DNA of 45,240 bases from a virus: IMG/VR virus record IMGVR_UViG_3300045988_062454. One strand, written 5' to 3'. Shown here in pieces: positions 2,645 through 39,979 of the stretch (within the stretch, counting starts at the first letter, position 1; each line of letters begins with the position of its first letter). Made by a program: the position numbers and the translations under genes. The notes under the pieces are model-generated. The model saw only the letters and a list, made by a program, of their open reading frames with translations. It ran no database searches and was not told the origin of the DNA.

Positions 2645-3072
2645 TGGACGATTTACATATTAAGTGGGAAACGGGAAGAATGGTGATCCATTTAGAAAAC
2701 TTCTTTCCTACCAGTCAGGCAAGGTTGAAAAAGCTTATCAAAATCATTCGCCTTGACTGGCAACATTCAGATGAATTGATTGAAAAATTGAAAGTTTACT
2801 TTCAAGAAAAAATCCCGGAAAGTGAAGCTGAATTTCAGCGTTGCGGGAAAAAGTACATGGATTTTAAGCAGCGGGTGGCAGATACCGGACGAATGGTGCA
2901 GAGTAAAAAACGCCCTAATGGTGTTCCGCTGACAAAAGAAGAATTGAAAACCGAAAAAGAGCGGTTAAAAGATTACCGTGAATGGGAAAAGGACTATTTG
3001 CGGCAGGCAAAGAAGCACCAGCAGGAAAAGAAACAATACTTGGAACATTTGGAATATCTAAAAAAGGTGTAA
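2644..3072 (+). CDS. hypothetical coiled-coil protein
   Basis: ATG 2644 overlaps the polymerase stop (TGATG). The tracked ORF starts at 2593, but that start lies inside the polymerase gene. Confidence 0.45.
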   Translation: MDDLHIKWETGRMVIHLENFFPTSQARLKKLIKIIRLDWQHSDELIEKLKVYFQEKIPESEAEFQRCGKKYMDFKQRVADTGRMVQSKKRPNGVPLTKEELKTEKERLKDYREWEKDYLRQAKKHQQEKKQYLEHLEYLKKV

Positions 3073-3080
3073 GGTGGTGA

Positions 3081-4982
3081 TTGGAATTGTTCTTCAAAGG
3101 TTATGTGGAAACCAAAAATAAAAAATGTATTGAGAAATTCAAGGGCAGGACGGATTTCAAGACCTTTGAACAGGTTCAGTCATTGCCGGAGTATGCCGGG
3201 ATTTTGGCAGCAGAAACGATTTTGATTGATATTGATAATTTTGAGGAATCGGAAATTCTGTTTAACATTGTTCAAGAATTGAAATTGTGTTGCCGGGTGT
3301 ATAAAACCACACGAGGAAAACATTTCCTGTTCAAAAACAGCGGCGTTACTTCCAATGTGACAGGTAAGCCGGATCGCAGAACGGCAATAGGGTTGATTGC
3401 TGATATTAAGCTTGGTACAAGAAATTCCTATGAAGTTCTGAAATACGATGGCAGACAAAGGGAAGTTCTTTATGACACCGCAGAAAATGAGGAAGCCCAA
3501 CCCCTTCCCCGCTGGCTTTTTCCTATCAAGTCAAAAATGGAATTCGTTGATATGGATGCCGGAGACGGGAGAAATCAAGCCCTGTTCAACTATATTTTGA
3601 CCTTGCAGGCGAATGATTTTTCAGTCAGTGACGCAAGGGAAACAATCAGGATTATCAATAAGTATGTGCTGAAAGTCCCGCTGTCTGATAGTGAGATTGA
3701 AACCGTTCTTAGGGATGATGCGTTCAAAAAGCCCGTATTCTTTTCGGGATCAAGCTTCCTGTTTGATAAATTCGCAACCTTTTTGAAGAACAACAACCAC
3801 ATTATCAAAATCAATAATCAGCTTCACATTTATAAGAATGGTATCTATGTTTCCGGCTATTCTGAAATTGAAGCTGCTATGATACAGCATATTCCACAGC
3901 TTAACAGGGCAAAGAGGACGGAAGTTCTTGCCTACCTTGAAATTTTGATCCGTGAGAATACACGGGCGGAAGATGCAAACCTGATTGCCTTTGAAAATGG
4001 GCTATATAACATTGTGGATGATTCCTTCATAGAGTTTACTCCGGAACACATTATCACAAACAAAATCAGGTGGAAATATAATCCTGATACTTATTCAAAG
4101 ATTGCGGATGATGTGCTGAACCGTATTGCCTGTAACGATCCACAGATTAGGGCATTGTTGGAAGAAGCCATTGGGTATTGCTTCTATCGCAGGAATGAAC
4201 TTGGAAAGGCATTTATCCTGACCGGGGACAAGGCCAACGGAAAAAGCACCTTCCTTTCAATGGTGCAGAACCTTTTGGGGGAAGAAAATATTGCTTCCCT
4301 TGACCTGAAAGAACTTGGGGACAGGTTCAAAACCGCTGAATTGTTTGGCAAGCTTGCGAATGTGGGTGATGATATTGGGGATGAATTCATTGCCAATGCC
4401 GCCATTTTTAAGAAATTGGTGACAGGTGACAGAGTTTCCGCAGAGCGAAAAGGGCAAAACCCCTTTGAATTCAACAACTATTCAAAGCTTCTGTTTTCAG
4501 CCAATAACATTCCCCGTATCAAGGATAAAACGGGGGCGGTGCAGCGGCGTTTGACAATTATTCCTTTTGATGCAAAGTTCAGTGCTTCCGATCCTGATTT
4601 CAACCCGTATATCAAGCACCTGTTAAAGACTGATGAAGTCATGGAATACTTGATAAATTTGGGTATTGCAGGCTTAAAGCGGGTGCTTACTAATAGACAG
4701 TTCACACTTTCAACGAAAGTTCAAAAGGCAATGGACGAATACGAGGAAAGCAACAACCCTATTCTTGGCTTCTTCCGGGAATGTGAAGATGAAGATTTCC
4801 AAATTGAGAATGAGCCAACAAACAAGGTTTATAAGCGGTATCAGGAATATTGCCTTGCGAATAGCTTACAGCCTATGAGCAATATTGAATTTTCAAAGCA
4901 AGTGAACAGGATTTTGAATATGAAGGTTGTAGATAAATGGCTGAATGGAAGAAAACACCGGATTTTCGTTCCGGCAGAGTAA
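3081..4982 (+). CDS. bifunctional primase-polymerase / SF3 (D5/P4-type) helicase
   Basis: TTG start after RBS aaggtggtga. It has ILIDIDNF and TTRGKHFLF prim-pol motifs, Walker A GDKANGKST and Walker B VGDDIGDEF. Confidence 0.85.
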   Translation: MELFFKGYVETKNKKCIEKFKGRTDFKTFEQVQSLPEYAGILAAETILIDIDNFEESEILFNIVQELKLCCRVYKTTRGKHFLFKNSGVTSNVTGKPDRRTAIGLIADIKLGTRNSYEVLKYDGRQREVLYDTAENEEAQPLPRWLFPIKSKMEFVDMDAGDGRNQALFNYILTLQANDFSVSDARETIRIINKYVLKVPLSDSEIETVLRDDAFKKPVFFSGSSFLFDKFATFLKNNNHIIKINNQLHIYKNGIYVSGYSEIEAAMIQHIPQLNRAKRTEVLAYLEILIRENTRAEDANLIAFENGLYNIVDDSFIEFTPEHIITNKIRWKYNPDTYSKIADDVLNRIACNDPQIRALLEEAIGYCFYRRNELGKAFILTGDKANGKSTFLSMVQNLLGEENIASLDLKELGDRFKTAELFGKLANVGDDIGDEFIANAAIFKKLVTGDRVSAERKGQNPFEFNNYSKLLFSANNIPRIKDKTGAVQRRLTIIPFDAKFSASDPDFNPYIKHLLKTDEVMEYLINLGIAGLKRVLTNRQFTLSTKVQKAMDEYEESNNPILGFFRECEDEDFQIENEPTNKVYKRYQEYCLANSLQPMSNIEFSKQVNRILNMKVVDKWLNGRKHRIFVPAE

Positions 4983-5006
4983 AGAAGGTGAATTTTTTGA
5001 ATGAGC

Positions 5007-5024
5007 AGAGAGAGAGAGAGAGAG
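5007..5024. repeat. (AG)9 dinucleotide repeat
   Basis: Counted directly: atgagc(ag)9cagaca. It lies between ATG 5001 and the methyltransferase body. Confidence 0.95.
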
Positions 5025-5142
5025 CAGACAAGGGCTTGACTGGACAGGCAACCAGCGTAGCATTTATACAACCCTTGGTGCTTCAAACCACACGGACAAA
5101 GAACGGCAGCAACATGATTATTATGCCACAGAGCCTAAAGCA

Positions 5143-5628
5143 ATGGAACTTCTGCTTGCAGAGGAAGATTTTTCACCTGTCATTTGGGAATGTGCTTGCG
5201 GTGAAGGGCATTTGTCAAAAGTGCTTGAAGAACACGGCTTCGAGGTTATCAGCACAGATTTAATATATCGGGGCTTTGGTGATCCTGAACCGCTGGACTT
5301 CCTGAAAGATACTTTGGAAGATTTTGAAGGGGATATTATCACAAACCCGCCTTACAAATACGCTTTGGAATTTGTTCAAAAGGCGTTGGACAGTGTGCAG
5401 CCGGGAAAGAAAGTGGCAATGTTCCTGAAACTGCAATTCCTTGAAGGAAAGAGCCGCAAGCAGTTCTTTCTACATAATCCCCCAAAGGTGGTATATGTTA
5501 GTTCTTCCCGCCTTATATGCGCTATGAATGGGGAATTTGAGAAATACCCGTCAAGTGCGGTTGCTTATGCGTGGTTCGTTTGGGAAAAGGGGTTCAAGGG
5601 CGATCCTATAATCAAGTGGATAAATTGA
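5143..5628 (+). CDS. N6-adenine-type (NPPY) DNA methyltransferase; the conserved N-terminus extends upstream to ~5025 without an in-frame start
   Basis: It has WECACGEGHLS (AdoMet motif I-like) and DIITNPPY (motif IV). The same frame upstream reads ...SNHTDKERQQHDYYATEPKA. That looks like part of the protein, but the frame has no ATG, GTG or TTG between the stop at 5002 and 5143. Confidence 0.8.
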   Translation: MELLLAEEDFSPVIWECACGEGHLSKVLEEHGFEVISTDLIYRGFGDPEPLDFLKDTLEDFEGDIITNPPYKYALEFVQKALDSVQPGKKVAMFLKLQFLEGKSRKQFFLHNPPKVVYVSSSRLICAMNGEFEKYPSSAVAYAWFVWEKGFKGDPIIKWIN

Positions 5629-5640
5629 AAGGGGTGCAAG

Positions 5641-5847
5641 ATGAATAATCCAAAATATAACAGCGAGGGTTATGCCGATCCTACGGCTTATTATGGCACA
5701 AAGGAGATTATCAGAGAAGAAAGCGAAACAGAAAAACGGGCTTATGACCTGATAAAAGTGTTGAAGTTTATTATTCGTTCATGTGGCTTTGAATTGATTG
5801 AACGGGTAAAAATCAAAGATACCAAAACCGGAAGGGAGTTCAAATAA
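5641..5847 (+). CDS. hypothetical protein
   Basis: 68-aa ORF with RBS aaaggggtg upstream. Confidence 0.4.
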   Translation: MNNPKYNSEGYADPTAYYGTKEIIREESETEKRAYDLIKVLKFIIRSCGFELIERVKIKDTKTGREFK

Positions 5848-6083
5848 TGGATATGATGAAACAGCTTGATGAAGCAATCGGGGCAGCTTTTGAAGAATTC
5901 AAGAAGGAATTTGGAGAAGATGTTAAGCTTGAAGAAGGGGACGAATTTGTAACTGTATTTAATAATGCGGTTCTTGTGATTGGTGTTGAAGATTATACCC
6001 TGAAAACAAAGTTTATTGGTGGTAAACCATATAAGGTAGATATGACACTTGCAATTTATGAAGGGGGTTCGGATGATGAATAA
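5847..6083 (+). CDS. hypothetical acidic protein
   Basis: 78-aa ORF whose start overlaps the previous stop (TAATG). Confidence 0.4.
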   Translation: MDMMKQLDEAIGAAFEEFKKEFGEDVKLEEGDEFVTVFNNAVLVIGVEDYTLKTKFIGGKPYKVDMTLAIYEGGSDDE

Positions 6084-6609
6084 TTTTAGTGAAGCAGATA
6101 GAATTGAACAGTTTGAAAAGTTAATGAACCCTTATATTTCAAAGGAATTCAGGAATTGGCTGATTGCCAATGGATTTTTCACAGCCCCGGCTTCTATTCA
6201 TCACCACGGGGCATATACAGGGGCGTTGTTCGATCATAGCTTTGCAGTAACCAAAACGCTTCTTTCCTTCACAGAACGGCTTGGGTTATCGTGGATGAAA
6301 GAGCGCAGCCCCTATATTGTGGGTATGTTCCATGATTTGTGTAAGATTGATAATTACACATATTCGGGGAATGAAGCGTGGGAATATAACAATGCAACCT
6401 TTCTTCCGGGACATGGTGAAAAGTCGGTGATTATGCTGCAACAGCACATGAACCTTACAGATGAAGAAATGCTTTGTATCAGGTGGCACATGGGGGCTTT
6501 TGATGATAAAGAGCATTGGAACAGCTACGGGCGATCCGTGACACATTTTCCGAACGTGCTTTACACTCATACCGCAGATATGGTTGCAGCCCGTATTTTG
6601 GGGGTGTGA
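6073..6609 (+). CDS. HD-domain phosphohydrolase (YhaM-like HD domain)
   Basis: Motifs are SIHHHGAYTGALFDHS, GMFHDLCK, GHGEKS and IRWHMG. ATG 6073/6076 follows RBS aaggggg. The tracked ORF begins at 6049. Confidence 0.7.
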   Translation: MMNNFSEADRIEQFEKLMNPYISKEFRNWLIANGFFTAPASIHHHGAYTGALFDHSFAVTKTLLSFTERLGLSWMKERSPYIVGMFHDLCKIDNYTYSGNEAWEYNNATFLPGHGEKSVIMLQQHMNLTDEEMLCIRWHMGAFDDKEHWNSYGRSVTHFPNVLYTHTADMVAARILGV

Positions 6610-6611
6610 TT

Positions 6612-6749
6612 ATGAGCCGTGAACAGGATGATTTGGATCAGTTGAAATATATTCAAGAATGGACAAAGAAACAGGCGCAAAAAAGAGCAAGGCGAAAAGA
6701 ATTTGTTCAAAAATTCAAAAATAAATTGAAATGGTGGTGTAGAAAATGA
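6612..6749 (+). CDS. small basic protein (hypothetical)
   Basis: ATG 6612 follows ggggtg. 45 aa, Lys/Arg-rich. It overlaps the next start. Confidence 0.3.
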   Translation: MSREQDDLDQLKYIQEWTKKQAQKRARRKEFVQKFKNKLKWWCRK

Positions 6750-7642
6750 AGATATATGATGGAATTATGGGTTTGGTTGTCGCTGATGCGGTTGGTGTTC
6801 CGTTTGAGTTTAAGAAGCGTGATACTTTCAAGGCGGATAAAATGACCGGGTACGGGACTTACAATCAGCCGCCCGGTACTTGGTCGGATGATAGCAGTTT
6901 GACACTTGCCACGGTTGCAAGCATGGGAAGAAAGGGGAAGATTGATCCGGCTGATATAATGAACAATTTCTTCTTATGGCTGGATGATGGGGCATATACC
7001 CCTTATGGGAAGGTGTTTGATGTGGGCGGCAGCACAAGAAAGGCAATTTCAAGATATGCGAACGGCGTTGAACCTTTGAACTGTGGTGGCAAAACCCGCA
7101 TGGATAACGGCAACGGTGCTTTAATGCGTATTCTTCCACTGGCGTTCATCCCCCATACTGCACAGGATATTTTGAAGGTTGGTAAGCTGACACACGCACA
7201 TGAGATTTCACAAACTGCTTGCCGCTTATATGTTCACCTTGCCGGAAAGCTTATTGAAGGAACGCCGATAAAGGAAGCAATCTGTTCTTTGGCTTATCTT
7301 CCACCCGTTACACAGATGAAGGAATTTGAACGGATTGCCTATATTGGTGAACTGAACCGGGATGAAATCAAAAGTTCCGGGTATGTGGTTGACACACTGG
7401 AAGCCGCCCTTTGGTGTTTATGGGCAACCAACACTTACAAGGATTGTGTGCTTACCGCCGTGAATTTGGGTGAAGATACTGACACAGTGGCAGCGGTGGC
7501 AGGCGGGCTTGCCGGGATTGTTTATGGTTGTGGTGGTAAAAACGGCATACCTACCCGCTGGATCAATCAGATTGCCCGCAAAGAATGGATTCAGATGCTT
7601 TGTGATAATTTTGAAAGTAAATTTTCAAAACATTCAACTTGA
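6746..7642 (+). CDS. ADP-ribosylglycohydrolase (ARH/DraG family)
   Basis: Motifs are GLVVADAVGVPFE, GTWSDDSSLTLA, GNGALMRILP and GEDTDTVAAVAGGLAG. Confidence 0.85.
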   Translation: MKIYDGIMGLVVADAVGVPFEFKKRDTFKADKMTGYGTYNQPPGTWSDDSSLTLATVASMGRKGKIDPADIMNNFFLWLDDGAYTPYGKVFDVGGSTRKAISRYANGVEPLNCGGKTRMDNGNGALMRILPLAFIPHTAQDILKVGKLTHAHEISQTACRLYVHLAGKLIEGTPIKEAICSLAYLPPVTQMKEFERIAYIGELNRDEIKSSGYVVDTLEAALWCLWATNTYKDCVLTAVNLGEDTDTVAAVAGGLAGIVYGCGGKNGIPTRWINQIARKEWIQMLCDNFESKFSKHST

Positions 7643-7787
7643 TATTCAAGATACATTCAAGTTGTAGTTGTTAAAACTTGAATGATGAAAAAGCTTGATA
7701 TTATGCTAATTTTCTAATATTCATTCAAGTTATTCAAGTTGTTTTCATGTTCTTTATAAATGGTATTTTTATAGTTTTGTGACTTAC

Positions 7788-7839
7788 TATTTTTTCACAA
7801 AAAATAATATAAAGAGAAACAACAAGTTGAAGTTGAATG
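7788..7839 (+). repeat. 52-bp perfect inverted-repeat copy A (partner at 35828..35879)
   Basis: tattttttcacaaaaaataatataaagagaaacaacaagttgaagttgaatg equals the reverse complement of 35828..35879. Flanking bases differ on both sides. Confidence 0.95.
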
Positions 7840-7928
7840 AAGCTATATGCGCTTTTTCTCAAATACAGATAGAATCAAGGCTTTTTACACATTCAAGATA
7901 AATTCAAGTTAGGAAAGGAAGTTGTACC

Positions 7929-8351
7929 ATGCGGGCGAAAGAATATTTGCAGCAGTTACGGCGGTTAGATACCGTCATAGATCAGAAAATCAAGGAATTA
8001 GACGATTTGAAGGTAAAGTCAACCTGTATCGGCGGGTTTGATTATTCAAAAGAACGGGTGCAGACAAGCCCTTCCGGTGATGCGCCGTATGTAAGGACAG
8101 TAAGCCGGATTGTTGATCTGAATGAAGAAATCAACCGGGAAATTGATGATTTTGTTGACCGGAAGCACAAGATTATCAATCAGATTCAGGGGTTAGACAA
8201 TCCTAATTACATTAAGCTTCTGTTCAAGCGGTATGTTGAATTCAAAAAGTTTGAAGAAATCGCTTTTGAATTAGATTTTACATACCAATACACCATAGAA
8301 CTTCACGGGTATGCGCTTAAAGAATTTGAAAAAACCTATCTCACCCAATGA
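7929..8351 (+). CDS. putative late-gene transcription regulator (DUF1492 / sigma-70 region-4-like)
   Basis: 140 aa. It has an N-terminal EYLQQLRRLDTVIDQKIKELDDL pattern and a C-terminal FEEIAFELDFTYQYTIELHGYALKEF (HTH-like). It sits directly upstream of terS. The family call is from memory. Confidence 0.5.
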   Translation: MRAKEYLQQLRRLDTVIDQKIKELDDLKVKSTCIGGFDYSKERVQTSPSGDAPYVRTVSRIVDLNEEINREIDDFVDRKHKIINQIQGLDNPNYIKLLFKRYVEFKKFEEIAFELDFTYQYTIELHGYALKEFEKTYLTQ

Positions 8352-10395: not shown

Positions 10396-11925
10396 GTGTT
10401 TGGCTTTGTCGGAAACATGGCTTTGCGTGTGTCAAATTGGGCTTTGCAAGGTGTTCATGGAAAAATGCACGATAAAGAATTCCTTGAACGGGAAATTGAA
10501 AAGTGGAAAAACAGCCCGCAGCGTATCATGCAGATCAAAGGTCATTTGTACTATGATAATGAACACGACATTTTAACCCGCAAAAGAACCATGATCGGTG
10601 AAGATGGCAAGCTGCAAGTGGTTGATAATCTTCCGAATAATCGGGTGATTGATAATCAGTATGCAAAGCTTGTCAATCAGAAAGCAAATTATCTTTTGGG
10701 ACAACCTTTTGCCATTGATTGTAATAATGAACAGTACGTTGAACTTTTGAAAAAGGTTTTCAACAAGCGATTTATGAAAACAATCAAGAACGCTGGAAAG
10801 GCTATGATGAACAGCGGTATTTGCTGGCTTTATCCGTATTATACGGAAACGGGGGAATTTTCCTTCCGTCTGTTCCCCGGATATGAAATTCTTCCCTTTT
10901 GGAAGGATAACGAACACACAATCCTTGATTATGCGGTGCGCCTGTATTTGGTGGTTGGGTATGAAGGTATATCCCCCGTGGTAATTGAAAAGGTTGAAGT
11001 GTACGATTTAGACGGGGTACATAGGTTTATTTTAGATGGTGGTGTGCTAATCCCTGATGTTGTCAATCAGGAAAACTCTGATTCTTACCACGTTATGACT
11101 ATGAATGAAAACGGGGAAGTTCAGGGCTTTAACTGGACACGGGTTCCGCTTATCCCGCTGAAATACAATGAACAGGAAACCCCGCTGATAAAAAAGGTGA
11201 AATCTTTGCAGGACGGTATCAATATTATGCTGTCTGACTTTGAAAATGGTATGCAAGAGGACACCCGAAACACTATTCTTGTTCTGAAAAACTATGATGG
11301 CACGAATTTAGGGGAATTCCGGCGCAACCTTGCCACTTTTGGGGCGGTGAAGGTTCGCTATGATGGGGAAACCAAAGGCGGGGTTGAAACCCTTGAAATT
11401 ACCGTCAATTCCGAAAACTACAAGGCTATTTTGGAGATATTCAAAAAGGCTATCATTGAAAACGGCATGGGGTATGATGCCAAAGATGATAGGTTGTCCG
11501 GCAATCCTAATCAGATGAACATTCAATCAATGTATTCTGATATTGATTTGGATGCTAACGATATGGAAACCGAACTGCAAGCGGCTTTTGAAGATGTGCT
11601 TTGGTTTGTAAACGCTTATCTTGCCAATTCCGGTTATGGGGATTTTGAAGGGGAAGATGTGAATATCATTTTCAACCGGGATATTCTCATAAACGAAAGT
11701 GAAGCCATTGATAATTGTGCAAAATCCGTTGGTATTCTTTCGGATGAAACCATCATTGGTATGCACCCGTGGGTGGATGATGTGCAGAAAGAAATGGATA
11801 GGCTTGAAGAACAGAAGCAAAAGGAAAAAGAGGAAGCAGAAGCCAATGCTTATAATCCTTTTGCACCGAACCCGCAGCAGCAAGGGGCTTCACAGCAAAA
11901 AGGCGGTGAAGTAGATGAAGAATAG
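10396..11925 (+). CDS. portal protein (SPP1 gp6-like)
   Basis: 509 aa, follows terL. It has a GTG start after aaagggg and an acidic or Gln-rich C-terminus. Confidence 0.8.
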   Translation: MFGFVGNMALRVSNWALQGVHGKMHDKEFLEREIEKWKNSPQRIMQIKGHLYYDNEHDILTRKRTMIGEDGKLQVVDNLPNNRVIDNQYAKLVNQKANYLLGQPFAIDCNNEQYVELLKKVFNKRFMKTIKNAGKAMMNSGICWLYPYYTETGEFSFRLFPGYEILPFWKDNEHTILDYAVRLYLVVGYEGISPVVIEKVEVYDLDGVHRFILDGGVLIPDVVNQENSDSYHVMTMNENGEVQGFNWTRVPLIPLKYNEQETPLIKKVKSLQDGINIMLSDFENGMQEDTRNTILVLKNYDGTNLGEFRRNLATFGAVKVRYDGETKGGVETLEITVNSENYKAILEIFKKAIIENGMGYDAKDDRLSGNPNQMNIQSMYSDIDLDANDMETELQAAFEDVLWFVNAYLANSGYGDFEGEDVNIIFNRDILINESEAIDNCAKSVGILSDETIIGMHPWVDDVQKEMDRLEEQKQKEKEEAEANAYNPFAPNPQQQGASQQKGGEVDEE

Positions 11926-14416
11926 TGATTACTGGAAGCAGCGTTTTGAACAGCTTGAAATTGCACAGAACCAAATAGGCGGTTCAGCCCTTGGGGAAAT
12001 CGTGCAGCAGTACAATGAAGCCCAAAAGCAGATTGAAGGTCAGATTGCCCGGTGGTATCAGCGTTTTGCCGATAACAACGGGATCACGATGGCAGAAGCC
12101 CGCCAATGGCTTTCCGCTTCTGACCTGAAAGAACTGAAATGGGATGTTCAGGAATATATCAAGTACGGTCAGGACAACGCCTTAATGGGTGGATGGATGA
12201 AGGAATTGGAAAATGCTTCGGCAAAGTACCATATTTCTAAGCTTGAAGCCCTGAAAATTCAGACACAGCAAAGCCTTGAAGTTATGTTTTCAAAACAGCT
12301 TGGGACTATGACCGGGGCAATGCAGGATGTTCTTGAAAGTGGCTATTTCCATACAATCTATGAACTTCAAAACGGATTCGGTATTGGGTGGGATATTGCA
12401 GGACTGGATCAGAAGCAGATTGAAAAGGTGCTTAGTAAACCTTGGGCGGCTGACGGTTACAATTTTTCTGATAGGATTTGGAACAATAAGCAAAAGCTGA
12501 TTTCAGAGGTTCACAGCGAACTTACCCAAAATATCATGCTTGGGGCTGATCCGCAGAAAGCCATTGATTCCCTTGCAAAGAAGATGAAAACTTCTAAGAA
12601 CAACGCCGGGCGGCTTGTTATGACGGAAGAAGCTTATTTCAGTTCCGTTGCACAAGGGGAAGCGTTCAATGAACTTGATGTTGAACAGTATGAAATCCTT
12701 GCAACGCTGGATTCCCACACTTCGGAAATATGCCGCAGCCTTGACGGGCAAGTGTTTCCTATGAAGGATTATGAAGCAGGTGTTACCGCCCCGCCATTTC
12801 ATGTTTATTGCCGTTCAACTACGGTTCCGCATTTTGATGAAAACTTCGGTCAGATTGGGGAACGGGCGGCGAGGGATGAAGAAACGGGCAAAACCTACTA
12901 CATTCCCGATGATATGAATTATCAGGACTGGAAGAAAACCTTTGTGGATGGCGGCGATAAGTCCGGCTTTGATGTGGTAGACGATGGTTCAGCCCTTCAC
13001 TACTCACACCACAAAGAGCCTGAACAGCCCAAACCTAAGAAGGAATATCTGACAAAGAAGAAGCTGCAAGCCTATATTGCGGGTGCGGAAGCTGATATTG
13101 AAGATTTGGAAAACCAATTCAATCAGCAGACAAGCGGCTTGATTTCTTGGGAAGATTTCAAGAAGGACTACGGCGGGGATTATTCCGCTATATCCTATGA
13201 CGGCGCAGAGGAAAAAGCCTTGAAAGCGATTGGGGATCAGATTGAAGCCCTGAACGCTCAAAAGGCAGAGTGGCAAGAAAAGCTGAATGAAAAGCTGGTA
13301 AAGGAACAGAAAAAAGCCCTTGCCAAACAGCAGCTTGATTTGGAAGCGCAGAAAGCCGCCTTGCAGCAGAAGCTTGATGATTTTGAGGTCAAAACCTATT
13401 CCGGCATTTGGAAGGATGATAAAACAACCGCTGATTGGGCTTCCCTGAATATTGAAGGCAAGAAGAAATACTATGAAGGGAAGTTCATTACTGAAAGTGA
13501 TCCTGACCTGATGAAGAAATATCAGGATTTGTACAATCAGCTTCAAGAGCTGGACACAGAGGGTAAAGCCTATGCGGATATTCAGAAAGAATTGCAGCAG
13601 GTCAATAAGCAGATCAGCAAAGTTCAATCTGATTTGAAAAAACTTGAAACTGATGGTATAATTGAATCGGTAGACGATGCCTTTTCGCAGGAAAGAAAAG
13701 ACGCTGCAATGTGGGCTAAGTCAACCAAAGAAGCAGATGCCCTTTTGCGTGATACTTGCGGTGAGGTGTGGCGCACTTCCCCGCCCATACAGAAAAATGC
13801 TATCTACGATTACACCCAAAGTTACCACAAATTCAATGAACCTTTGCGGGGCATTGAATACGGCAGCGAAAAGTTCTTAGGCGTTGGCAATGTGGATTTG
13901 GATCAAATCGGCGTGAAGTATGCTGGATGGCAGCCGGGTGCAATGCGGAAGGAAATCAACGCTATGACTGACATAATCGAAAAATCAACCTATCAGGAAG
14001 ATTTTTGGTTGCAGCGTGGTTGTAGATTTAAGGGCATGGATAAGTTCTTCAATGTTCCGATGGATAAATTGCAGCGGGCAACACAAGATGAATTGGAAGC
14101 CTTGCTTTTGGGTACTACACCCACAGAATACGGCTTTTGTTCATGCGGCGTTGCAAAGGGCAAAGGATTCAGCGGTGATATTATCCTGAATATCTACGCC
14201 CCTTCCGGCACTCAAATGATGTATGTTGAACCATTTTCCGCATTTGGTAATGGTTCGGGCAAGTCTTGGGATGGTATTGCAAAGCAATCTTCTTTCGGGC
14301 AGGAATCGGAAATCATCTTGCAGCAAGGAACAACCTTCCGTGTTACAAAGGTTGAGAAAACACCCGGCATGATATACATTGATCTTGAGGTCATAGGGCA
14401 AAACCCGCAGCGATAG
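11915..14416 (+). CDS. MuF/SPP1 gp7-like minor head protein fused to a C-terminal ADP-ribosyltransferase (R-S-E class) domain
   Basis: The MuF motif is LDSHTSEICRSLDGQVF...APPFHVYCRSTTVP. A long coiled coil follows. The C-terminus then has IYDYTQSYHKFNEPLRG, FWLQRG (Arg), GFCSCG (STS-like) and GQESEIILQQGTTF (ExE). Confidence 0.8.
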   Translation: MKNSDYWKQRFEQLEIAQNQIGGSALGEIVQQYNEAQKQIEGQIARWYQRFADNNGITMAEARQWLSASDLKELKWDVQEYIKYGQDNALMGGWMKELENASAKYHISKLEALKIQTQQSLEVMFSKQLGTMTGAMQDVLESGYFHTIYELQNGFGIGWDIAGLDQKQIEKVLSKPWAADGYNFSDRIWNNKQKLISEVHSELTQNIMLGADPQKAIDSLAKKMKTSKNNAGRLVMTEEAYFSSVAQGEAFNELDVEQYEILATLDSHTSEICRSLDGQVFPMKDYEAGVTAPPFHVYCRSTTVPHFDENFGQIGERAARDEETGKTYYIPDDMNYQDWKKTFVDGGDKSGFDVVDDGSALHYSHHKEPEQPKPKKEYLTKKKLQAYIAGAEADIEDLENQFNQQTSGLISWEDFKKDYGGDYSAISYDGAEEKALKAIGDQIEALNAQKAEWQEKLNEKLVKEQKKALAKQQLDLEAQKAALQQKLDDFEVKTYSGIWKDDKTTADWASLNIEGKKKYYEGKFITESDPDLMKKYQDLYNQLQELDTEGKAYADIQKELQQVNKQISKVQSDLKKLETDGIIESVDDAFSQERKDAAMWAKSTKEADALLRDTCGEVWRTSPPIQKNAIYDYTQSYHKFNEPLRGIEYGSEKFLGVGNVDLDQIGVKYAGWQPGAMRKEINAMTDIIEKSTYQEDFWLQRGCRFKGMDKFFNVPMDKLQRATQDELEALLLGTTPTEYGFCSCGVAKGKGFSGDIILNIYAPSGTQMMYVEPFSAFGNGSGKSWDGIAKQSSFGQESEIILQQGTTFRVTKVEKTPGMIYIDLEVIGQNPQR

Positions 14417-38739: not shown

Positions 38740-39159
38740 ATGAGTTTTGCAGAAAAATTGAAAGCCCTTATGGGCGAACTGGATTTATCACAGTCCAAAC
38801 TTTCAGACCTTACCGGGATTGGTAAATCTTCGATCAGTCAGTATCTTTCCGGTAAGAATGAACCTTCCAAAGACAGGAAGAAGGAAATTGCCCGGAAATT
38901 GGGCGTTCAGGAAGATTACTTTGATACCTTTGAAACCGCTGCAACGGTTCAGCATGACGGGGTTTTCAATCTTCCGGTTACATTGGCAGCTAAGTTGATG
39001 GGGAAGTCCAAAGAGTGGGTGAAACAGGGCTTGCGTGATGGTGTATTCCCGTGGGGATATGCCGTGAAGCTTACGAATTGGAGTTACTTTATTTCTTCCG
39101 TCAAGTTTACAGAATATACAGGAATCAAAGTTCCTTTGAAGTTAGAAAGTGAGGGTTAA
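38740..39159 (+). CDS. XRE-type HTH DNA-binding protein
   Basis: It reads FAEKLKALMGELDLSQSKLSDLTGIGKSSISQYLSGKNEPS. Confidence 0.65.
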   Translation: MSFAEKLKALMGELDLSQSKLSDLTGIGKSSISQYLSGKNEPSKDRKKEIARKLGVQEDYFDTFETAATVQHDGVFNLPVTLAAKLMGKSKEWVKQGLRDGVFPWGYAVKLTNWSYFISSVKFTEYTGIKVPLKLESEG

Positions 39160-39163
39160 GCGA

Positions 39164-39979
39164 ATGAGTGAAACAGGAGTTATCAGAGGATTCAAAGTGT
39201 TCAATCCTGATTGGACTTGCAGAGACAAACAGTACACTTGCCCCGGTGCATTTGAAGAAGATGTTGCCCCTTCCGTTTGTGATAGAGGGATGCACTTCTG
39301 TAAGAAAGCGGCTGACTGCTTCAATTATTACAGTTTTAACCCGGAAAACAAGGTTGCGGAAGTGATTGCCATTGCTGAACGCACCGTTGAAGATGGTGAC
39401 AAATGCGCCACAAATTACCTTGAAATTGTCCGTGAAATCAGTTGGCAGGAAGTTCTTGAAATTGTGAATACGGGAAAGGGTTGCACCGGACTTTGCAACA
39501 GCGGCGATTGCAACAGCGGCGATTGGAACAGCGGCAATTGGAACAGCGGCAATCGGAACAGCGGCGATTGGAACAGCGGCAATCGGAACAGCGGCAATCG
39601 GAACAGCGGCGATTGGAACAAGTGCAGCTTTTCCAACGGGTGCTTTAATACGGTTGAACCGAAAATTTACCTGTTCAATAAGCCGTCTGACTGGACTTAT
39701 AGGGATTGGCTGAATAGCGATGCCCGTTATCTTCTGAATCAGATTCCGGGTGATGTTCTTGAATATGTGTGGTTCGAGGATATGACGGATGAAGAAAAGA
39801 CAGCACACCCGGAAGCCAAAACCACAGGTGGTTATCTGAAACAGCTTGACAATTCCGAATGTGGTTCTATTTGGTGGCGTGGGCTTAATGACTATGAAAA
39901 ATCTATTATCAAGGCAATTCCGAACTTTGACAAGGAAATCTTCAAAGAGATCACCGGGGTTGATGTTGATATGGAATAA
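39164..39979 (+). CDS. repeat protein: conserved Cys/His N-domain plus (NSGxx)n pentapeptide-type repeats
   Basis: The N-terminus is GFKVFNPDWTCRDKQYTCPG...CDRGMHFC. The repeat region is CNSGDCNSGDWNSGNWNSGNRNSGDWNSGNRNSGNRNSGDWN. Confidence 0.6.
   Translation: MSETGVIRGFKVFNPDWTCRDKQYTCPGAFEEDVAPSVCDRGMHFCKKAADCFNYYSFNPENKVAEVIAIAERTVEDGDKCATNYLEIVREISWQEVLEIVNTGKGCTGLCNSGDCNSGDWNSGNWNSGNRNSGDWNSGNRNSGNRNSGDWNKCSFSNGCFNTVEPKIYLFNKPSDWTYRDWLNSDARYLLNQIPGDVLEYVWFEDMTDEEKTAHPEAKTTGGYLKQLDNSECGSIWWRGLNDYEKSIIKAIPNFDKEIFKEITGVDVDME
39497..39616 (+). repeat. eight tandem 15-bp units aacagcggcRatYgS (coding)
   Basis: Units were counted directly at 15-nt spacing, starting at 39497, 39512, 39527, 39542, 39557, 39572, 39587 and 39602. 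Confidence 0.95.

Follow-up and report, generated by a model that had tools for sequence, protein, structure and literature searches.

The DNA analysed here, which we refer to as the window, is a stretch of 45,240 bases from a virus (IMG/VR record IMGVR_UViG_3300045988_062454). Our subject is a predicted DNA methyltransferase (MTase) gene of this virus, together with a run of AG dinucleotides which lies between the body of the gene and its start codons. An earlier note, made from the letters of the sequence, had pointed to this arrangement as a candidate for phase variation by slipped-strand mispairing. The Shine-Dalgarno-like site, the start octamer and the abortive open reading frame (ORF) listed below were read from the sequence; the evidence for the other elements is given in brackets.

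4984..4990, plus strand: Shine-Dalgarno-like site gaaggtg, common to both start codons, at a distance of 6 nt from the TTG and 10 nt from the ATG downstream of it.
4997..5004, plus strand: octamer TTGAATGA, in which TTG, TGA, ATG and TGA overlap.
5007..5024, plus strand: (AG)9 simple sequence repeat, the frameshifting element (Tandem Repeats Finder and pattern test; 3 to 24 units in relatives).
5001..5039, plus strand: abortive 12-codon ORF from ATG 5001 at (AG)9, with the product MSREREREQTRA and a stop at 5037..5039.
4997..5263, plus strand: out-of-frame 88-codon ORF from TTG 4997 at (AG)9, which is part of the ORF 4937..5263 and overlaps the MTase body.
5005..5628, plus strand: MTase reading frame, intact, 207 codons and a stop at 5626..5628 (translation, PHROG 799, homologues).
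5038..5142, plus strand: conserved N-terminal segment DWTGNQRSIYTTLGASNHTDKERQQHDYYATEPKA, including the motif-X-like DYYATEP at 5116..5136 (pN/pS, the ratio of nonsynonymous to synonymous polymorphism, and invariant columns).

The octamer provides a start codon in two of the three frames. Frame a has TTG 4997 as a start, frame b has TGA 4998 and then ATG 5001, and frame c has TGA at 5002..5004, so that the third frame, which is the MTase frame in the window, is closed. Relatives retain GGAAGGTG or AAGGGGTG at the same distance as the gaaggtg of the window. The octamer is followed by the bases GC and then by the perfect (AG)9 tract, which begins 3 nt past ATG 5001 and 7 nt past TTG 4997. The tract encodes Arg-Glu in all three frames and hence never contains a stop codon. 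A perfect repeat with a unit length not divisible by three is thus positioned between the starts and the body of the gene, as is typical for phase-variable genes.

The number of repeat units (n) determines which start is connected to the MTase. ATG 5001 is joined to the gene when n = 1 mod 3 and TTG 4997 when n = 2 mod 3 (the two ON phases), while neither is joined when n = 0 mod 3 (OFF). With n = 9, the window is, as predicted from its reading frames, an OFF allele: from 5005 onwards the MTase frame contains no ATG, GTG or TTG until ATG 5143. The 88-codon ORF which is read from TTG 4997 in this state is probably without function. The earlier note had described the position of the repeat, the open but startless MTase frame, the Shine-Dalgarno-like site with the two starts in the other frames, and the 12-codon peptide, and all of this was confirmed on the sequence. 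Its arithmetic, by which (AG)10 fuses ATG 5001 and (AG)8 fuses TTG 4997 to the gene, also holds.

Chance does not account for the (AG)9 tract, which is the sole dinucleotide run of at least 5 units in the whole window. Homopolymers of at least 8 bases are absent from the window altogether, and a 12-base AG pattern had no match in 100 dinucleotide-preserving shuffles. Of the 35 dinucleotide repeats of at least 6 units in 952 kb of sequence from related loci, 30 are located exactly at the MTase-start site.

Relatives were drawn from IMG/VR, from one genome per GTDB species, and from metagenomes. We retained loci with a DYYATEP anchor that have TTGAATG and an AG tract ahead of it, with KDW encoded after the tract. 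Most of the matches listed in the metagenome pattern scan were chance occurrences in unrelated environmental contigs, and only DYYATEP-bearing loci were kept from it. Among the matches listed, there are 46 non-identical loci with n ranging from 3 to 24. The full octamer TTGAATGA is present in 45 of these 46 repeat-bearing loci, TTGAATG being itself a selection criterion; the exception is L033. In a direct ORF analysis, 20 of these loci proved to be OFF, whereas the ON phase is reached via the ATG in 15 and via the TTG in 11; such counts are compatible with the three frames being used equally (chi-square p = 0.27).

The length of the tract evolves much more rapidly than its flanks. In four loci (L007, L118, L008 and L003), the 600 bases downstream show no difference and the 300 bases upstream 0-1 differences, yet the unit counts are 9, 10, 11 and 17, respectively. 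The first two of these, one OFF (n = 9) and the other ON (n = 10), have only 3 differences in 6,500 flanking bases, so that repeat number varies among near-identical genomes. All three phases are found within the window's own lineage, where the ATG gives the ON phase in L301 (n = 7) and L290 (n = 10) and the TTG does so in L275 (n = 14). Ten contigs which encode exactly the 161-residue truncated product of the window were examined, and n was 9 in eight of them, 12 in one and 18 in another. All of these values are 0 mod 3, which matches the prediction from the frame arithmetic. Natural fusion proteins of both predicted kinds exist, MS(RE)n from the ATG and MNEQ(RE)n from the TTG, and single protein clusters at 90% identity contain MNEQ(RE)1-5, MS(RE)1-5 and truncated forms of 161-185 residues. 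The comparison of repeat length across relatives, which the earlier note had recommended, thus revealed wide length differences and all three phases.

The locus is also present in two strains in culture, both of them ON: [Clostridium] asparagiforme DSM 15981, whose complete genome (NZ_CP102272.1, L120) has (AG)24, and Otoolea muris DSM 111138 with (AG)5. In an older draft of C. asparagiforme (IMG genome 643886112), two contigs (L017 and L104) end inside the tract and are 100% identical to L120 on either side; at the end of one of these contigs stands (AG)25, followed by junk, against (AG)24 in the complete genome. This break suggests either read heterogeneity or difficulty at the repeat. A compound repeat, with (AG)n directly followed by (CG)4, is found in L020 and L119.

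In-frame (26) and out-of-frame (20) alleles both occur, and the OFF genes are otherwise intact. An intact ORF of 199-201 codons follows the tract in 19 of the 19 OFF loci that could be evaluated, and pN/pS is 0.167 in OFF alleles versus 0.161 in ON alleles. Plain pseudogene decay was rejected on the basis of these intact ORFs and equal ratios; as judged from coding capacity and substitution pattern, the OFF alleles are not decaying genes.

Among the alternatives to a selected switch, the one that survives best is a neutral hot spot of mutation in a gene that the phage can do without, with unselected switching and with OFF as the first step of gene loss. Such a scenario would be in line with the frequency of OFF alleles (20 of 46 loci, and 644 blocks with the (AG)9 truncated product), with the extra truncations in L119, L277 and L290, and with L024 and L043, where an interrupted tract is fixed in the OFF phase. 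It does not predict that the OFF ORFs remain intact and as constrained as the ON ORFs, nor that perfect tracts are retained in lineages whose protein identity has dropped to about 78% (L032 and L033), while more distant homologues, which begin at M(x)KDW, have no repeat. It is further opposed by the occurrence of four types of repeat at one and the same position.

In one lineage (L319, L334-L337), the tract between the start region and KDW is (AGCA)n, with 3 to 8 units overall. It sits behind ATGATTGATGA, which has two ATGs in different frames and leads to MIDET.. and MKQQ.. proteins. At the DNA level, n = 7 is ON and n = 3 and 6 are OFF, and the proteins imply n = 4, 5 and 8. Another lineage (L320-L323, L338-L340) carries poly-G, where G9 is ON from the first ATG (MKNFEHGTGGGN..) while with G10 and G7 it is the second ATG that gives the ON phase (MELGG(G)N..). 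L035, a poly-G locus apart from these and with other flanks, carries ATGAATGA; it has G8 and is OFF. In L318, this position is occupied by (GACA)5. Two frames are provided with a start codon and the third is closed in each of the AG, AGCA and poly-G lineages. The independent acquisition of different repeats at a single site speaks for selection on switchability as such, and we consider the neutral hot spot to be improbable.

It could also be argued that the OFF state is leaky, with frameshifting, transcriptional slippage or internal initiation yielding some MTase and with tract length tuning its level. In many relatives, a TTG located 42 nt ahead of DYYATEP is in frame and leads gene callers to products of 180-185 residues; the window is not among them and lacks any in-frame start from 5005 up to ATG 5143. 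No slippery heptamer or stimulatory structure was noticed, and no search aimed at these was made. AG dinucleotide tracts are not known to be places where transcription slips, which also counts against leakiness, and we regard this explanation as very unlikely.

Even less can be said for a sequencing or assembly indel in a gene that is in reality simple and in frame. Dinucleotide repeats are error-prone on some platforms, and the old C. asparagiforme draft breaks inside the tract. However, at least 10 independent assemblies, which differ in sample and assembler (L001, L297, L324, L325, L327, L328, L330-L333), have (AG)9 between the same flanks, the 18-bp tract is far below read or k-mer size, and a range of 3 to 24 units is beyond what stutter explains. 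On the basis of the independent assemblies, an assembly artefact was excluded.

The earlier note had considered the codons between the tract and ATG 5143 to encode a genuine conserved N-terminus, and this is borne out for the segment 5038..5142. The profile of PHROG 799 ('DNA methyltransferase') aligns to residues 7-207 of the translation from 5005 (E = 1.9e-64) and thus over the full length. In 33 aligned sequences, seven residues before M47 (which corresponds to ATG 5143) are invariant: R34, D38, Y40, A41, T42, P44 and A46. Across 41 relatives, pN/pS is 0.127 for the 35 codons before ATG 5143 versus 0.173 for the rest of the gene. By this measure, these 35 codons are coding and under strong purifying selection. 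The homologues (best 120 of thousands) have 191-218 residues and cover 91-100% of the query; homologues are 76-95% identical to the MTase translation from 5005, with matches that extend over 92-100% of it. As the homologue alignment proposed in the earlier note revealed, full-length homologues begin upstream of the repeat and not at the equivalent of M5143. In distant homologues (at most 82% identity) the repeat is absent and the protein starts directly at M(x)KDWTGN, 84 nt upstream of DYYATEP. Translation from ATG 5143 would lose the N-terminal segment and motif X. The view that ATG 5143 is the true start of a 161-residue protein, with a non-coding upstream frame and the repeat in a 5′ untranslated region, has in its favour that ORF finders and public annotations often call this product and that the top BFVD match is a 160-residue annotation, but it was rejected as hardly tenable because of the conservation of the upstream codons, which PHROG 799 and all full-length homologues span and beyond which even the repeat-free homologues begin, and because a Shine-Dalgarno site is absent before 5143.

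With respect to the enzyme, two further motifs could be assigned in the body of the protein.

5176..5211, plus strand: region of motif I, which binds S-adenosylmethionine, VIWECACGEGHL, with W61, E62, A64, C65, G66, G68 and H69 invariant.
5341..5355, plus strand: catalytic motif IV, TNPPY, with T113, N114, P116 and Y117 invariant and P115 nearly so.

Together with DYYATEP (residues 38-44), ECACGEGH (62-69) and TNPPY (113-117) follow each other in the order X, I, IV of gamma-class MTases. The AlphaFold2 model has a Rossmann-like fold with a mean pLDDT (predicted local distance difference test) of 71, values being low for the N-terminal 41 residues. For this model, the top Foldseek matches in the PDB are M.TaqI (E = 3.9e-7, template modelling score 0.54), M.BseCI and CamA, and tRNA/rRNA MTases score similarly. 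About 90 residues follow motif IV, and a large target-recognition domain is not evident. A sequence search against the PDB returned only noise (E >= 0.19), and a precomputed match to PF05869, the Dam family of phage T1 type, exists for a few homologues. An orphan N6-adenine DNA MTase similar to M.TaqI is the best reading of these motifs and of the modelled fold, with a substrate and a target motif that are predicted on the same grounds.

The annotation of this family is not uniform. In a protein search of phage records, all homologues were below 60% identity; they are annotated as DNA/SAM (S-adenosylmethionine) methyltransferase or as NAD(P)-dependent oxidoreductase, and P0089 and two phage-record homologues bear the latter name in NCBI/UniRef. 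This label is probably a misannotation. OFF alleles have been deposited as hypothetical proteins of 160-185 residues. Three MTases (P0048, P0054 and P0114) are mosaics in which the N-terminal third comes from the repeat-free lineage (MSGSKKVFTTLGSSNHVPEEREAF...). The remainder is identical to the window's protein in P0048 and P0054 and differs at a few residues in P0114, a pattern that points to intragenic recombination.

The window is a complete genome of a temperate tailed phage, with a DNA polymerase, a D5-like primase, terminase, portal, major head, tape measure and tail proteins, and an integrase. The gene upstream of the MTase is the primase:

3081..4982, plus strand: D5-like primase/helicase (Pfam DUF5906, D5_N and Pox_D5), with a TAA stop 14 nt before TTG 4997.

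As the MTase gene directly follows the primase, it is placed in the replication (early) module of the phage, and this gene order recurs in related contigs. The neighbours of the MTase are the primase, small ORFs, an HD phosphohydrolase and an ADP-ribosylglycohydrolase. Res, HsdR and HsdS are not among these neighbours, and with about 200 residues the protein does not have the character of a Type I or Type III component. The hosts, as given by prophage location, are Lachnospiraceae and other Clostridia of the gut. A megablast search with positions 3000..8000 gave no match among 50,697 GenBank phage records, and a close relative in culture is lacking.

In four relatives (L121, L013, L022 and L123), a second, unrelated small MTase-like gene (ILDLCGGTGSW...PPCTEFS) is located directly downstream of the first; the window does not have this gene. 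In two of these four loci, a (CA)n tract is found behind a NTGAATGA start region: the gene in L121 (3611-3646) and L013 (about 3600-3640) starts with TTGAATGAAC or GTGAATGAAC, followed by (CA)8 or (CA)5. The gene of L022 (3609-4268) has an internal (AC)12 at 3721, and that of L123 is located at about 3600. In the poly-G lineage (L320-L323, L340), the MTase is followed by a gene for a 324-residue protein and by a C5-cytosine MTase (PF00145), so that there are several MTases per phage.

Two other features of the window were noted. A 15-bp tandem repeat with 8.5 copies (39493-39620) lies within the ORF 39149-39979 on the plus strand, which codes for a 276-residue protein. It encodes the pentapeptides NSGDW/NSGNW/NSGNR and is in frame, so that a change in copy number alters the length of the protein and not its frame. 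The minor head protein (11915-14416, plus strand) has a C-terminal ADP-ribosyltransferase-like region (PHROGs 16625 and 3895), and the ADP-ribosylglycohydrolase (6746-7642, plus strand) is encoded three genes after the MTase. The two may represent a pair of toxin and reversal enzyme.

Taking the evidence together, we consider it quite likely that 4997..5628 is an orphan MTase gene of the N6-adenine type, carried by a temperate phage of gut Clostridia, and that its translation is controlled by slipped-strand changes in the length of (AG)n. The candidate switch proposed in the earlier note is supported by the polymorphism of the repeat and by the conservation of the N-terminus in related sequences. 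A single ribosome-binding site would serve the overlapping starts TTG 4997 and ATG 5001, the third frame being shut by TGA. Each AG unit gained or lost would shift the MTase body by 2 nt, and the gene would cycle through three phases: ON from the TTG with MNEQ(RE)x... (n = 2 mod 3), ON from the ATG with MS(RE)x... (n = 1 mod 3), and OFF (n = 0 mod 3). The tract would add only a variable Arg-Glu tail before the conserved DW...DYYATEP N-terminus, and the two ON isoforms would otherwise be alike. At n = 9, a peptide of 12 residues or an out-of-frame peptide of 88 residues would be made, and no MTase. Switching would be frequent and reversible within a population. The ON protein would methylate adenines in DNA, and this methylation would be lost in the OFF phase.

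The benefit is probably a bet-hedging of DNA methylation in the progeny phages. Methylated DNA would be protected from classical restriction-modification, while unmethylated DNA would escape methylation-dependent restriction. A second possibility is an effect on gene expression in the lysogen; we favour bet-hedging because the gene sits among early replication genes. More tentatively, and with somewhat less than an even chance of being correct, it may be proposed that this MTase family has repeatedly evolved a two-start, three-phase switch, and that the phages release mixtures of methylated and unmethylated genomes as bet-hedging against methylation-blocked and methylation-dependent restriction, which would be a phage-side counterpart of the phase-variable restriction-modification systems of bacteria.

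Several points weigh against the proposed switch or against the nature of its enzyme. All length variation that was observed is variation between assemblies. The OFF allele with (AG)9 is very common in the window's lineage, where the 161-residue product is listed in 644 blocks of the collection; either an advantage of the OFF state or a fair stability of n = 9 could be behind this. OFF alleles account for 43% of the 46 loci versus 33% expected, and we do not claim a selection for OFF, as this excess is not significant (p = 0.098). Some copies do decay, since 3 of the 26 ON loci (L119, L277 and L290) have further truncations downstream, with a premature stop 54 codons past the tract in L119. 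For the MTase protein, the match to Pfam Dam (PF05869) reached 20.4 bits and thus remained below the cut-off of 28.1, and a search of NCBIfam gave no match. The structural model is of moderate quality (pLDDT 71) and RNA MTases are among its fold matches. MTase activity, target motif and DNA as the substrate are predictions.

Most of what is known about phase-variable MTases concerns chromosomal Type I and Type III systems in pathogens adapted to a host; the switch proposed here sits on temperate phages whose hosts are abundant commensals of the gut. Should it operate as proposed, phage populations and possibly lysogens would be epigenetically mixed, which would affect the crossing of restriction barriers. 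Binning and host assignment in metagenomes, as far as they are based on methylation, could be misled by such mixed states. In public annotations the gene is recorded as a 'hypothetical protein' of 161-185 residues or as an 'NAD(P)-dependent oxidoreductase'.

The 'phasevarions', in which Type III Mod or Type I MTases are phase-variable, have been described for Haemophilus, Neisseria, Helicobacter, Moraxella and Streptococcus suis (PMC5909438, PMC7383803, PMC6265453). As in these systems, the repeat is located in the coding sequence of an N6-adenine MTase, and the number of units shifts the frame between ON and OFF and differs between close strains. Unlike them, the phage MTase is a protein of about 200 residues, similar to M.TaqI and with no Res, HsdR or HsdS partner nearby; its carrier is a temperate phage of gut Clostridia, where it belongs to the replication module, and the repeat directly follows two alternative starts. 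Not being a Type III or Type I component, the phage MTase is not a phasevarion in the strict sense.

The lic loci of H. influenzae reportedly have (CAAT)n behind multiple starts in different frames, as is said to have been found by Weiser, Love and Moxon in 1989. The likeness lies in a repeat just past alternative starts in two frames, which results in two expressing phases and one null phase. Being chromosomal genes of lipopolysaccharide biosynthesis with a tetranucleotide repeat, however, the lic genes are neither phage genes nor MTases. General context for translational switches of the lic type in H. influenzae is given in PMC2651432.

M.Btr192IV is an orphan N6-methyladenine MTase (Hia5/M.HindVII-like) from a prophage of Bibersteinia trehalosi, with (CAAG)12 located 63 bp after the start codon; one repeat length was found in two strains, it was not expressed in the native host, and the significance was called 'unclear' (PMC4996451). 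It shares with the MTase described here that a non-triplet repeat is found near the 5′ end of an orphan adenine MTase gene of a prophage. It belongs to another MTase family and to another host phylum (M.Btr192IV is from Pasteurellaceae), whereas length polymorphism, three phases and convergent repeats are documented here. In the paper on Hia5 (PMC3299994), repeats are not mentioned. Type II/IIG MTases of Helicobacter pylori and cj0031 of Campylobacter jejuni are phase-variable via homopolymer or dinucleotide tracts (PMC3936762, PMC4889913). These also have a frameshifting tract in an MTase gene, and their activity returns when the tract length is corrected. In contrast to the phage gene, they are chromosomal, have mostly poly-G or poly-C tracts, and are often part of restriction-modification systems or of fusions.

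On the side of the phages, Campylobacter phage genes are reported to carry hypermutable poly-G tracts (Sorensen et al. 2021). There, too, a contingency locus diversifies a phage population, but in receptor-binding and structural genes and not in DNA modification. PamA, an MTase from a Staphylococcus aureus prophage (as cited in PMC13076061), is likewise an orphan adenine MTase of a phage and can change the phenotype of the host; it is not known to be switched by a repeat. A full-text literature search and two recent reviews (PMC13076061, PMC12707154) provided no description of the MTase family treated here or of a documented phage-borne MTase that is switched by a repeat. Slipped-strand translational phase variation is a known mechanism; its carrier is unusual here, and the convergence is clear.

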